Below are positions 27,632 to 30,286 of a stretch of DNA of 64,000 nt, piece by piece. Within the stretch, counting starts at the first letter, position 1; every line of letters starts with the position of its first letter. Origin of the DNA: a virus; the IMG/VR virus record IMGVR_UViG_3300049855_000345, positions 3,534-67,533 of that record; one strand, given 5' to 3'. Position numbers and translations under genes: made by a program. The notes under the pieces are model-generated. The model was not told the DNA's origin and did not search any database. It saw only the letters and a list, made by a program, of their open reading frames with translations.

Positions 27632-30286
27632 TCATAAGGTTTTGTCTACGGTAGGCCCGACAGCGTGCTCTAGGCTAAAGAACGCAGCAATATTACGAAG
27701 ACGACTAAGCGTCGCACCGTTGACGAAGCTATGCAGGATTTGCACAGCGATTTCCTGCTCCTGCGCAGCCAGCAGGCGCTTACGCCGAGTTCCACGTTCA
27801 GTTAGAGACTTGAACAACTCCGGTTCTAGGTAGTCGATTCCGTAGATTAGTCGGAGGTACTCTTTTCCTCGAACTTTGAGCGCGGTTTGGTTGGGGAACC
27901 CATTTTCCTGGAAGGTAATGGGGTTGCACGGCTTATAGACGAAGCCCTCACCACCCTTAGCGCAGTAGTTTTCCCAAGCGGTTGCGGACAAGTCACAGAA
28001 GAACTCGTCATTGGTATCCACACGTACAGTTTTAACTGGCTTGAGGATGTCGCCTTCTAGACCACGCAGTACCGTGCAATACTGTTCCCACATATCCTGG
28101 TAGAAGCCCAACTTGATGTTATTGAATGGGTTTCTGTTGATTCGACCGTCACGATACCATACGTCGCCTGTAGCTAGTACATGGAAGGGGTGGACAGTAA
28201 CAGGGCGTTTTTCCGTATAATTTCGGAGAGAAGCTAGAAAGGCGGCAGACCTAGTATACTCTGCTTCTGTTCCGAATCGATTACGCCAGATAAGCGAAGC
28301 CTCACCGGGCAGCTGGAAGTCACGTTCGATCAGCGAATCCGCCTTATAAGACCAAGGTAGAATCTCTGCGTCCAACATGATGAAATCCGACTTCATCTTA
28401 GGGACGAGGTCACGGTAGATAGCGTCTAGCTCAGGGGCACCACGGTCGAAAAACCGTACCCCAGACCTGGAGTTTACCGTTACAGCATGCTCGAAGCCTA
28501 GCTCCTGAGCAGCCTCAGGATTCTTGAAGCACAGAACGTAGCCGCGACTTCCCATCAACTTTTGTTGCTCGATAACGTAGCGAATTCCACGCTCTCGGAA
28601 ATACTTGAACGCGGTGTTTGGGTGCTCTAGGCAAGTATCGCCCTCCGTATAATCAACCGGAGGTAGAGTCGGACCAAGATAGAAAATCTCATTGGCGTTA
28701 GCCAGGAAAGCGCTGGTTTTCACACCTTCAGCGAGGTCCTTTCCAGAAACGATTAGATTGGTGTGCTGGTAATACAAAGTATCGTACATGATACTGGTGA
28801 ATGGGTTGGATTCCTCTGCGTCAGCCTTCCGCTTAGCCCTAATGAAGAAAGACGGCTGAAGGAGTCGAGGGTCTACGTCCTCAGAGAACTGTCGGATAAG
28901 CTCTTTGCTCTCATCTTCCGAGAGACCGCGCTTCGCAATTACTGAAGCAAGGTAACTTTGTGGCTCGACGATAGGAAGCAAATCTACGTCATAGCGATCA
29001 GTAAGAGGGGCCACGATCTCAGCCAGGAAGGATTCCAGGTCGTACTCGATGCGGTGGTCCTTATGCCGGAACTCACCTGCGGGAATACCGTAGATAGTAT
29101 TGTAACCCACATTCGGGACAGTAATGAGGATGTTTTTAGCGTTAGTTTGCTTCAGTAGGCTAAGTACTGAGGCGCGGTCCGTTTGGTGCAAGTGCTCCAG
29201 AATTTCTGTAGCAATGACCACATCGGCATTCATAGCCTCACGGTGCCAGCGTTTCGGGTATGCAATATTCTCGACGATAGCCCAAGCGTTGTCCTTAGAC
29301 AACTTCTCTTTTCGCATGTACTTTTTGAGACGAGAAATCTTCCTCTCATCTGCATCCACGCTGAGAACCTTCAGTTCGTTGGGGAACCGAGAGAGCAGCT
29401 CCATAGTGAGCTTACCTTCAGAGGTACCCACATCGACAACCTTGTAGAAGTCCCTATCTTCAGTAATTTCAGAAAAGATAGTTTTGACAGTGGCCAGCAG
29501 CACGTCATGTCGTGCATGGTGGAGTGTATACTTTTGCTCCACATCTTTAGAGTCCTGGCTATTCTCACGAGAGACCGTTTCCTCATTCGTAGTCCCGTCT
29601 TCGAACTGCTTTACCAAGCTGGCCATGTGCTTGGTTAGCTTTTTAACGATCATGTCTTTATGGGAGCAGCCGTTAATCCATGAGGACGAAAGGCGGACAT
29701 ACTTATCAACCTGCTCGTTAGTAATATGCGTGTTCCAGGCGAATTTCGCGGTGAACGCAAGGCTCACGATATAGATCTTCTGGAGGAACTCAGACACTGA
29801 CATGTCTTCGAGTGTATTGAATGTATACACTTCTACGAACTCTACGGTATCTACCGGAGAGGGCGCCGTTGGCGTTGCTTGGATCTTAAGACTCTCTAGC
29901 GCTTCCACAAACGCTTTACTCATCTTAGGGAAGGGGCCAAGCTCCGCTTGCTGCGCAGTCTTCAGCTCGAATTTCTCTTGTGGGAACGTACTTTTGCTTC
30001 CGTTCTGCCCAAAGAGCGCAGAACGCAGGCATTCCGAGAGGCCACGGAGATTGAAAGGACAGACAATCCAAGGCTCGGGACGCACGTATGCAGCCTCGTT
30101 CCTCTCCTTCATCGACTGGGTAAAGACCAGCAAATCGTTCTTTACCAGCAGGCGGTATTCGGTATCGGAGCTAAACGAGCCGGTGACCGTGCGCCCAGTT
30201 TCGTACGTCTTCTCGTACACAGAGCCAGGACGTTTGCAGAGAATCCAGGACAGATCGGGATTATTACTGATGAGCTTGAAAAACAT
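27632..30286 (-). CDS. Hen1 (activator + 2'-O-methyltransferase) fused to a Pnkp-type RNA ligase domain
   Basis: Hen1-N-like DLSWILCKRP and YVRPEP; MTase VDVGTSEGKL, EILEHL, TVPN..YN, FRHKDHRIEY; ligase EHP..AF.YFR, QKLMGSR, LDAEILPWSYKA, GGEGFVYKP, KVRGKEYLRLIYG, C-terminal VDKTL. Confidence 0.9.
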   Translation of the reverse strand: MFFKLISNNPDLSWILCKRPGSVYEKTYETGRTVTGSFSSDTEYRLLVKNDLLVFTQSMKERNEAAYVRPEPWIVCPFNLRGLSECLRSALFGQNGSKSTFPQEKFELKTAQQAELGPFPKMSKAFVEALESLKIQATPTAPSPVDTVEFVEVYTFNTLEDMSVSEFLQKIYIVSLAFTAKFAWNTHITNEQVDKYVRLSSSWINGCSHKDMIVKKLTKHMASLVKQFEDGTTNEETVSRENSQDSKDVEQKYTLHHARHDVLLATVKTIFSEITEDRDFYKVVDVGTSEGKLTMELLSRFPNELKVLSVDADERKISRLKKYMRKEKLSKDNAWAIVENIAYPKRWHREAMNADVVIATEILEHLHQTDRASVLSLLKQTNAKNILITVPNVGYNTIYGIPAGEFRHKDHRIEYDLESFLAEIVAPLTDRYDVDLLPIVEPQSYLASVIAKRGLSEDESKELIRQFSEDVDPRLLQPSFFIRAKRKADAEESNPFTSIMYDTLYYQHTNLIVSGKDLAEGVKTSAFLANANEIFYLGPTLPPVDYTEGDTCLEHPNTAFKYFRERGIRYVIEQQKLMGSRGYVLCFKNPEAAQELGFEHAVTVNSRSGVRFFDRGAPELDAIYRDLVPKMKSDFIMLDAEILPWSYKADSLIERDFQLPGEASLIWRNRFGTEAEYTRSAAFLASLRNYTEKRPVTVHPFHVLATGDVWYRDGRINRNPFNNIKLGFYQDMWEQYCTVLRGLEGDILKPVKTVRVDTNDEFFCDLSATAWENYCAKGGEGFVYKPCNPITFQENGFPNQTALKVRGKEYLRLIYGIDYLEPELFKSLTERGTRRKRLLAAQEQEIAVQILHSFVNGATLSRLRNIAAFFSLEHAVGPTVDKTL

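Follow-up and report, generated by a model that had tools for sequence, protein, structure and literature searches.

The minus strand of a 64-kb stretch of viral DNA (the window; positions 3,534 to 67,533 of IMG/VR virus record IMGVR_UViG_3300049855_000345) carries, from position 30286 down to 27632, one uninterrupted open reading frame (ORF) of 884 amino acids (aa), here called P0001, in which a Hen1 N-terminal domain, a Hen1-type methyltransferase domain and a Pnkp-type RNA ligase domain follow one another in a single chain. The source record is 67.5 kb long, is classed as a virus and was judged 17% complete, which implies a genome of roughly 400 kb. An initial annotation, made from the letters of the DNA alone, had described an 884-aa fusion of Hen1 and RNA ligase in viral DNA at this exact position, and the present analysis bears this out and adds the strand. 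The ORF begins with an ATG that has AGAGG in front of it, and the N-terminus, M-[FY]-x-K, lines up across all homologues aligned.

The domain order proposed in the initial annotation was recovered with Pfam, NCBIfam, PDB sequence, family hidden Markov model (HMM) and fold matches (Table 1). A Pfam scan returned the three kinds of family that had been expected: Hen1_L over residues 11-227 (expect value (E) 4.4e-6; 26.4 bits, cut-off 23), class-I methyltransferase models over residues 281-390, and PNKP_ligase (PF16542) over residues 525-865 (E 2.5e-56). A further model, Hen1_N, matched residues 3-199 with 24.8 bits, below its cut-off of 27. NCBIfam bacter_Hen1 (TIGR04074) matched residues 10-439, and bacter_Pnkp (TIGR04075) was matched over model positions 475-834 of 851 only, which is its ligase part. 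Bacterial Hen1 is a separate protein of ~460 aa, whereas the Hen1 of P0001 is the N-terminal half of an 884-aa chain. In a PDB sequence search, the ligase matched the ligase domain of C. thermocellum Pnkp (3ty8, E 3.5e-36) and the middle part matched the Hen1 methyltransferase domain 3jwj (E 7e-11); the Capnocytophaga Rnl, 4xru_B, was scarcely matched (E 0.15). The ligase domain includes an alpha-helical insert (residues 646-691), a C-terminal helical module and an invariant D-x-T-L end. The chain was also said to lack the Pnkp kinase and phosphatase, and neither module gave a Pfam or NCBIfam match: P0001 matched no kinase-type family and no Metallophos family in Pfam, and it is not among the six ORFs listed by a P-loop motif scan of the ORFs of the record.

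Conservation was assessed in an alignment of P0001 with 21 of the 24 homologues returned by a word-indexed search (22 members); two homologues with LAGLIDADG inteins (P0019 and P0021) and one with 68% coverage (P0022) were left out. All the motifs quoted in the initial annotation were found, with their key residues invariant across the 22 members. In the methyltransferase these are E361, E364 and H365 of EILEHL, P391, N392 and N396 of TVPN..YN, and R407, D410 and H411 of FRHKDH; these motifs match those of Anabaena Hen1 one-to-one (3jwj/3jwh, E 1e-11), and E361, E364, H365 and H411 fall at what we take to be the metal ligand positions of Hen1. In the ligase, K576, M578 and G579 of KLMGSR, which is aligned to KHMGSR of CthPnkp with K576 as the motif I lysine, are invariant, as are E641, residues E780, G781, F782, V783 and K785 of EGFVYKP, residues K804, R806, G807, Y810 and L811 of KVRGKEYLR, and D881, T883 and L884 of the terminal VDKTL.

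An AlphaFold2 model of P0001 was predicted on the family alignment, with a mean predicted local distance difference test (pLDDT) of 88.7 and a predicted template modelling score (pTM) of 0.85. Residues 235-251 alone are disordered in this model, and the linker between methyltransferase and ligase contains a 33-residue helical insertion specific to P0001 (block-mean pLDDT 69-78 over residues 441-480). Foldseek analysis showed that the top match of the ligase part is the Hen1-N-bound form of Pnkp-C, 4e6n_A, with a template modelling (TM) score of 0.79 and a root-mean-square deviation (rmsd) of 3.8, as against TM 0.70-0.73 and rmsd 5.8-8.2 for free ligase structures. The methyltransferase part matched the Hen1-C structures 3jwg, 3jwh and 3jwj (TM 0.83-0.85), and the N-domain matched the Hen1-N chains 4e6n_B and 4drf_B (TM 0.73-0.74). 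A docking prediction was performed in which residues 515-884 and residues 1-235 were folded as two chains, with three controls. The predicted complex scored 0.86, and the best control 0.52, a result that may reflect memory of the solved 4e6n and 4drf complexes; the mark used in this assay was attained by 58 of 80 solved complexes and by 2 of 110 mismatched pairs. Contact agreement between runs was at least 91% and partner pLDDT at least 87. The predicted interface involves residues 654-671 (the helical insert), 812-828 and 878-883 (the C-terminal tail) of the ligase, and residues 1-2, 47-74, 117-120 and 142-153 of the N-domain, which would explain the non-catalytic invariant residues F657, Y815, G816, D818, Y819, D881, T883, M1, N63, Y67, G117 and P118. 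Its placement on the insert is in agreement with excerpts of PMC3675462, according to which Hen1-N binds Pnkp through the ligase insert module.

The initial annotation had left open how common the fusion is, and an architecture search showed that it is not rare. The word-indexed search returned 24 other proteins, of which 23 span at least 90% of P0001 at 28-43% identity, and an exhaustive profile search gave 399 representatives at E up to 1e-30. Domain order was counted in 163 proteins, including the best 150 of these 399, using three domain HMMs cut from the alignment. Among the matches listed, the order N-domain, methyltransferase, ligase was found in at least 119 of the 163; 30 carry the ligase only, 9 methyltransferase and ligase, 4 N-domain and methyltransferase, and 1 N-domain and ligase, some of the short ones being possibly fragments. 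Room for a kinase-phosphatase was seen in none of the 119 fused proteins, the longer of which carry inteins or insertions. In P0019 (1243 aa) and P0021 (1216 aa), a ~340-aa LAGLIDADG intein-like insertion splits the Hen1 N-domain, from residue ~90 to ~430. One family member was found in NCBI, where it is named only 'methyltransferase domain-containing protein'. A megablast search of GenBank phage records found nothing, and in a tblastn search the fused form was present in none: 3 of 50,697 records matched, over the methyltransferase stretch only (16-17% coverage). In Vibrio phage RYC (AP014858.1), a Hen1-like methyltransferase match (30% identity, E 9e-7) falls on a feature annotated as 'polynucleotide kinase' (116369-116749); this may be another re-partition, of kinase plus methyltransferase. 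The literature covered on Hen1, Pnkp, RNA repair and phages, a scope outside which the main comparative survey and the supplements lie, contains no description of the fused chain.

A scan of viral sequences identified 10 loci, whose contigs range from 21 to 276 kb and in seven cases exceed 100 kb; this and the corresponding cellular scan used few patterns, and their absolute numbers are lower bounds. With the domain HMMs, a complete fused ORF was found in six loci: L003 and L008 (877 aa, with identical domain scores and coordinates), L004 (842 aa), L005 (870 aa), L009 (794 aa) and L007 (~976 aa from its true start). A 348-aa N-terminal extension at L007 was considered as a healing domain and rejected, as it matches no family and is rich in Arg and Pro, a product of reading through high-GC DNA; this gene starts at the MFFVL methionine. 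The four other loci comprise a split form (L012, with a 582-aa Hen1 and a 442-aa ligase-only ORF overlapping by 4 nucleotides), a ligase alone (L006), a fragment (L011) and a canonical pair of ORFs, a 447-aa Hen1 and an 857-aa Pnkp (L010). The ligase of L006 (9977-11236), in a complete 188-kb phage genome with terminal repeats, is a stand-alone 419-aa protein of Pnkp type that belongs to the fused clade described below, and neither a Hen1 N-domain nor a methyltransferase was detected anywhere in that genome. This ligase may therefore be autonomous or have another activator, since the published Pnkp ligase needs Hen1-N to seal.

The cellular picture was obtained from a scan of one genome per prokaryote species. 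Among its 44 loci, 38 have the ligase at the end of a Pnkp-sized ORF of 840-902 aa, most with a separate Hen1 ORF adjoining, 5 are fragments and 1 is fused. The fused locus, L013, is on a contig of a Candidatus Falkowbacteria metagenome-assembled genome, and is cellular by its SecY, adenylate kinase, methionine aminopeptidase and RecO genes. On one side of the fused gene, RtcB (E 3.6e-178) and archease (L013:5684-7665) are encoded convergently to it, and on the other lies a large serine recombinase; two ligation systems adjoin in one cellular genome. A FastTree phylogeny of 189 ligase domains (Shimodaira-Hasegawa-like support) was built after removal of duplicates and of rows covering fewer than 300 of 365 model positions or spanning more than 520 aa; its midpoint root is arbitrary and no order of events is claimed from it. 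A branch with support 100 separates 121 rows (102 fused, 13 ligase-only, 5 with methyltransferase and ligase, and P0110), P0001 among them, from 68 rows that contain 45 of the 46 Pnkp rows and 15 fused rows. This suggests that the fused form mainly marks one lineage, to which P0001 belongs, and that a second, smaller set is nearer to canonical Pnkp.

The initial annotation had reasoned that end-healing must come from elsewhere, and candidates were found both in the window and, in two related phages, near the fusion. In the window, a stand-alone 182-aa protein, a candidate HAD phosphatase like that of T4 Pnkp, lies 9 kb from the fusion. It matched phrog_415 'polynucleotide kinase' (E 2.9e-11) and positions 163-258 of 295, the phosphatase half, of phrog_505 (E 1.7e-6), and had no PDB sequence match; its listed start is GTG, and a later methionine directly ahead of the DIDGT motif may be the true start. 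This protein is a possible 3'-end healing enzyme, with a putative link to the fusion. The record's one Metallophos ORF is the Mre11-like 348-aa protein beside the Rad50-like protein, and a 170-aa P-loop protein outside the window (record positions 2972-3484) was rejected as a polynucleotide kinase, since its AAA_28 match, its PHROG assignment ('thymidylate kinase') and its best PDB relative, a deoxyguanosine kinase (E 0.2), indicate a protein like the (deoxy)nucleoside monophosphate kinases.

Two nucleotidyltransferases in the window are possible further companions. RlaP was found in 6 of 11 searched records with the ligase module, a frequency for which there is no large-phage baseline for comparison. 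Sections of a preprint (PMC12776372) report that RlaP adds one or two nucleotides onto damaged RNA 3' ends, that its genes occur near RNA-repair ligases, 5'-phosphate ligases included, and that phage T4 too has an RlaP; the RlaP of the window may accordingly restore a lost 3' nucleotide ahead of ligation. The Thg1-like protein is a possible tRNA-repair companion, again with a putative link to the fusion.

In related phages, healing-type genes adjoin the fusion itself. Within 4 kb of the L004 fusion are a 239-aa Metallophos protein, a T4 Rnl1-type RNA ligase and a 314-aa protein that combines an HD motif at the N-terminus with a kinase at the C-terminus; the best PDB relatives of this kinase are Pnkp1 (2.9e-9), T4 Pnk (8.7e-7) and CthPnk. 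At L003 and L008 the fusion is followed, in order, by a NADAR protein, a 413-aa HD and P-loop protein ~0.85 kb downstream, which matched the kinase profile over positions 66-177, and RlaP; the set looks like a compact repair cluster. The NADAR-domain protein (L003:12695-13183, same position in L008; E 3e-22) is directly downstream of the fusion, and the HD and P-loop ORF is separated by one TAG from the next ORF, which has the same frame. Two other candidates were rejected: a 339-aa neighbour at L009, taken for an HD-Pnk (phmmer E 1.6e-5), has the HD motif but aligns without the P-loop kinase region, and the AAA_33 match on the Falkowbacteria contig is an adenylate kinase.

The neighbours of the P0001 gene are replication and recombination genes, arrayed with it in a long series on the minus strand (Table 1). 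Promoter and terminator scans of the window showed no excess of sites over shuffled sequence, except for one strong hairpin terminator, the nearest to the gene, and no tRNA genes were found in the 64 kb. When the ORFs of 12 loci were compared all-against-all by BLAST, only RlaP and RecA besides the fusion were common to three or more loci, and there is therefore no fixed operon. The RecA homologue of L004 (8009-9535) is 508 aa long, with its domain broken from residue ~231 to residue ~452, as would be expected of an intein or some other insertion; that of L005 (18755-21103) is 782 aa long. A vWA-type protein adjoins the Hen1-ligase genes in two unrelated phages (L009:7227-8672 and L012:7729-9015), one of the two being a DUF2828/DUF7788 protein (PHROG 'RNA-binding protein', E 6e-109) and the other a weak VWA_CoxE match.

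Table 1 Features of the window, with the domains of P0001 listed beneath its ORF
Feature	Coordinates	Strand	Evidence
Thg1-like 3'-5' nucleotidyltransferase, 250 aa	8462..9214	+	Pfam Thg1 E 3.7e-23, Thg1C; phrog_4717 E 5e-82
RlaP (PF10127), Pol-beta nucleotidyltransferase, 361 aa	18944..20029	-	Pfam E 9.1e-24; phrog_388 E 2.4e-55
DnaB-like helicase	20970-22298		
Second helicase	23918-25603		
KH protein	25678-25968		
FEN-type 5'-3' exonuclease	25984-26835		
P0001, 884-aa ORF: Hen1-N, Hen1 methyltransferase and Pnkp-type RNA ligase in one chain	27632..30286	-	Stop codon 27632-27634
Pnkp-type adenylyltransferase/ligase domain, residues 516-884	27635..28741	-	Pfam PNKP_ligase, 3ty8, fold, invariant columns
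Methyltransferase-ligase linker, residues 443-515	28742..28960	-	Alignment, predicted model
Hen1-type metal-dependent 3'-terminal ribose 2'-O-methyltransferase domain, residues 250-442	28961..29539	-	Pfam, PDB sequence, motifs, fold
Hen1 N-terminal (ligase-activating) domain, residues 1-234	29585..30286	-	Pfam Hen1_L, family HMM E 1.6e-89, fold
ATP-dependent DNA ligase	30917-32260		
Strong hairpin terminator, nearest to P0001 gene	32373-32346		
DUF7873 protein	33219-33956		E 5.8e-92
Rad50-like protein	34859-37156		
Mre11-like protein	37153-38199		
HAD phosphatase candidate, stand-alone, T4 Pnkp phosphatase type, 182 aa	39408..39956	-	PHROG, Pfam; DIDGT motif
RecA-like protein, 415 aa	40003-41250		
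Topoisomerase	41225-43057		

Bacterial Pnkp-Hen1 is a complex of two separate proteins, as the initial annotation had it; excerpts of PMC3675462 describe how the kinase and phosphatase heal the ends and Hen1 methylates the 3'-terminal 2'-OH, and how the Pnkp ligase does not seal alone but seals once Hen1-N is bound. P0001 is like this system in its Hen1 N-domain, its Mn-type 2'-O-methyltransferase and its Pnkp-family ligase with helical insert and C-terminal helical module (TM 0.74, 0.84 and 0.79, respectively). It differs in being one chain and not two, and in being without the kinase and binuclear metallophosphatase modules, which leaves healing to other proteins; the kinase dimer that organises the tetramer in the described complex (same excerpts) is thereby gone, and most fused ligase domains form their own clade, apart from canonical Pnkp. 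The Rnl-Hen1 heterodimer, according to passages of PMC4411300, methylates and seals ends that have been healed, joining 3'-OH/5'-PO4 tRNA halves at a rate that S-adenosylmethionine (SAM) raises at least tenfold, and is a functionally equivalent unit. The claim that the modules have been re-partitioned thus holds for the one-chain methylate-and-seal arrangement, and the step is a smaller one than had been implied. In the Capnocytophaga gingivalis Pnkp1-Rnl-Hen1 heterohexamer (4xrp/4xru) the ligase is likewise detached from the kinase-phosphatase protein, so that the fusion is comparable to a single-chain form of its Rnl-Hen1 unit and L012 to its split state. The ligase of P0001 is nevertheless of the Pnkp type and not the Cgi Rnl type (E 3.5e-36 against 0.15), its parts are covalently joined, and no Pnkp1 partner was found in the 67.5-kb record.

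Phage T4 uses Pnkp and Rnl1 for tRNA repair against the anticodon nuclease PrrC. Healing and sealing are here also on separate phage proteins, the HAD candidate of the window is of the T4 Pnkp type, and a Rnl1-type ligase and a kinase adjoin the fusion at L004; T4 differs in having no junction methylation and a ligase of another family, and searches of the 67.5-kb record found no counterpart of its kinase half. Runella slithyformis HD-Pnk has an N-terminal HD domain and a C-terminal P-loop kinase (excerpts of PMC6097658), a layout shared by the 314-aa and 413-aa proteins of L004 and L003/L008. These proteins are in related phages and not in the window, and their HD assignment comes from motifs and a weak Pfam match (E 0.005). 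Jumbo phage XacN1 carries a PNKP (ORF197) and a Hen1-like methyltransferase (ORF198), as a section of PMC5852040 states. It resembles the viral locus L010, with its separate Hen1 and Pnkp, and both differ from P0001 in keeping the canonical two-protein form with kinase and phosphatase.

P0001 has every sequence and fold feature of a methylate-and-seal unit and no healing module, and is best explained as the covalent equivalent of the Pnkp-ligase/Hen1 or Rnl-Hen1 heterodimer. We infer that it is probably a working single-chain enzyme that methylates and seals in cis while healing is provided in trans, most plausibly for the rescue of RNAs cut by host nucleases. The ligase domain would adenylylate K576 using ATP, and the methyltransferase domain, with SAM and a metal at E361, E364, H365 and H411, would place a 2'-O-methyl group onto the 3'-terminal nucleoside of an RNA end bearing a 2',3'-diol. 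Bound in cis to the ligase through the helical insert and the C-terminal tail of the latter, the N-domain would then allow transfer of AMP to the 5'-phosphate end and sealing, and the methylated junction could not be cut again by transesterifying ribonucleases. Healing could be carried out by the HAD phosphatase together with a kinase encoded outside the 17% fragment, or by HD-Pnk-type enzymes as in the related phages, and the likeliest benefit to the phage would be the recovery of tRNA, or of other RNA used in translation, after cleavage by host defence nucleases. A more tentative proposal, possible though doubtful, is that jumbo phages have a modular tRNA-rebuilding kit whose parts are dispersed and whose sealing hub is the fusion; in it the HAD protein would act as 3'-phosphatase, RlaP would re-add an excised 3' nucleotide, the Thg1-like 3'-5' polymerase would handle damaged 5' ends, and the kinase would be still to be found or not needed.

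Several observations weigh against the proposal of a methylate-and-seal enzyme with healing in trans. The NCBIfam scores are far below the equivalog cut-offs (Hen1, 102.2 bits with a cut-off of 340; Pnkp, 171 with a cut-off of 750), the SAM motif, DVGTSEGK, has Ser at its second Gly, the docking outcome, possibly a memory of the solved complexes, indicates likeness rather than binding, and the gene is among DNA replication and repair genes and not in an RNA-repair operon. The Ser is attributed to a family trait and not to decay, since 9 of the 22 aligned members have it. On the healing side, the HAD candidate matched Pfam HAD_PNKP below the cut-off (E 1.4e-4), and a polynucleotide kinase elsewhere in the genome, for which the initial annotation had proposed a search, was not found in the 67.5-kb record (~17% of the genome), where AAA_33 had no match and phrog_505 matched the HAD protein only. 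In four complete or near-complete relatives (G004, G005, G007 and G010) phrog_505 had no match and AAA_33 one weak match below its cut-off, in G005, and because kinase evidence is absent or weak in these genomes the classical healing route is unproven for the family. The main rival explanation builds on this absence of a kinase from the record and its absent or weak trace in the relatives: the enzyme would seal breaks that already have 3'-OH and 5'-phosphate ends, made by metal-dependent nucleases or present as nicks in structured RNA, and the healing modules would have been shed as unneeded. The Falkowbacteria contig fits such an account, as its only AAA_33 match is the adenylate kinase and the neighbours of its fusion are RtcB and archease. 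RtcB-archease handles ends bearing a cyclic phosphate or a 5'-OH unaided. The Rnl-Hen1 heterodimer, too, acts on ends that have been healed beforehand (passages of PMC4411300). We consider this explanation distinctly unlikely, given the HD-Pnk-like or Metallophos genes that L003/L008 and L004 carry within 1-4 kb of their fusions, the PNKP-type HAD candidate in the window, and the possibility that profile searches miss divergent kinases; by established chemistry, moreover, a 2'-O-methyl group would guard only against transesterifying nucleases, whose products need healing.

The fusion could instead serve maturation or protection of the phage's own RNAs, for example by 2'-O-methylation of 3' ends, or by joining or circularising a phage non-coding RNA. 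Eukaryotic Hen1 enzymes methylate small-RNA 3' ends, and the P0001 model also matches plant HEN1 (3htx). The nearest terminator, although counted on the favourable side of this explanation, separates the DUF7873 unit from the transcription unit of the fusion, no DUF7873 homologue is common to the other fusion loci, and the fusion, RlaP and RecA are the only three families shared by at least 3 of the 12 loci; this explanation is very improbable. That P0001 is a chimera of two adjacent genes, or a catalytically dead fusion, is in practice refuted. The window does come from a metagenome assembly, and split forms do occur, as in L012 and L006, but the same continuous architecture is present in the 119 or more proteins counted above, from many samples, the catalytic motifs are all invariant, and the model is confident throughout, apart from residues 235-251. 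A separately built contig of 2746 nucleotides, probably from the same sample and so not independent, covers 27493-30238 and both domain junctions with 0 differences, and a second sequencing run (share 0.05) covers 30121-30404 only. The initial annotation had named an assembly artefact joining two genes as a way in which it could be wrong, and the family-wide fusion and the second contig speak against that.

What is new is the single-chain architecture; the parts, the chemistry and an equivalent heterodimer were already known, and this is not a new kind of biology. The Hen1-N, methyltransferase and ligase trio appears as a self-sufficient evolutionary unit. Well over a hundred sequence clusters, most of them from large uncultured phages, have it as a single chain, with kinase and phosphatase exchanged or provided by separate proteins. 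In the published view, 'repair with immunity' has the ligase-Hen1 pair as its functional core; the one-chain fusion supports this view and offers a one-protein reagent for testing it. As an RNA ligase predicted to mark the junction it makes, it is also a candidate tool enzyme. If the inferred role in counter-defence, which the initial annotation had also proposed, is true, junction methylation would join the phage counter-defence repertoire. If the modular kit exists as well, RNAs hit by several anticodon nucleases, nucleotide-excising ones included, could be repaired and permanently immunised by 2'-O-methylation, and with the kinase-phosphatase shed, a single methylate-and-seal enzyme would be free to work with one healing module or another.

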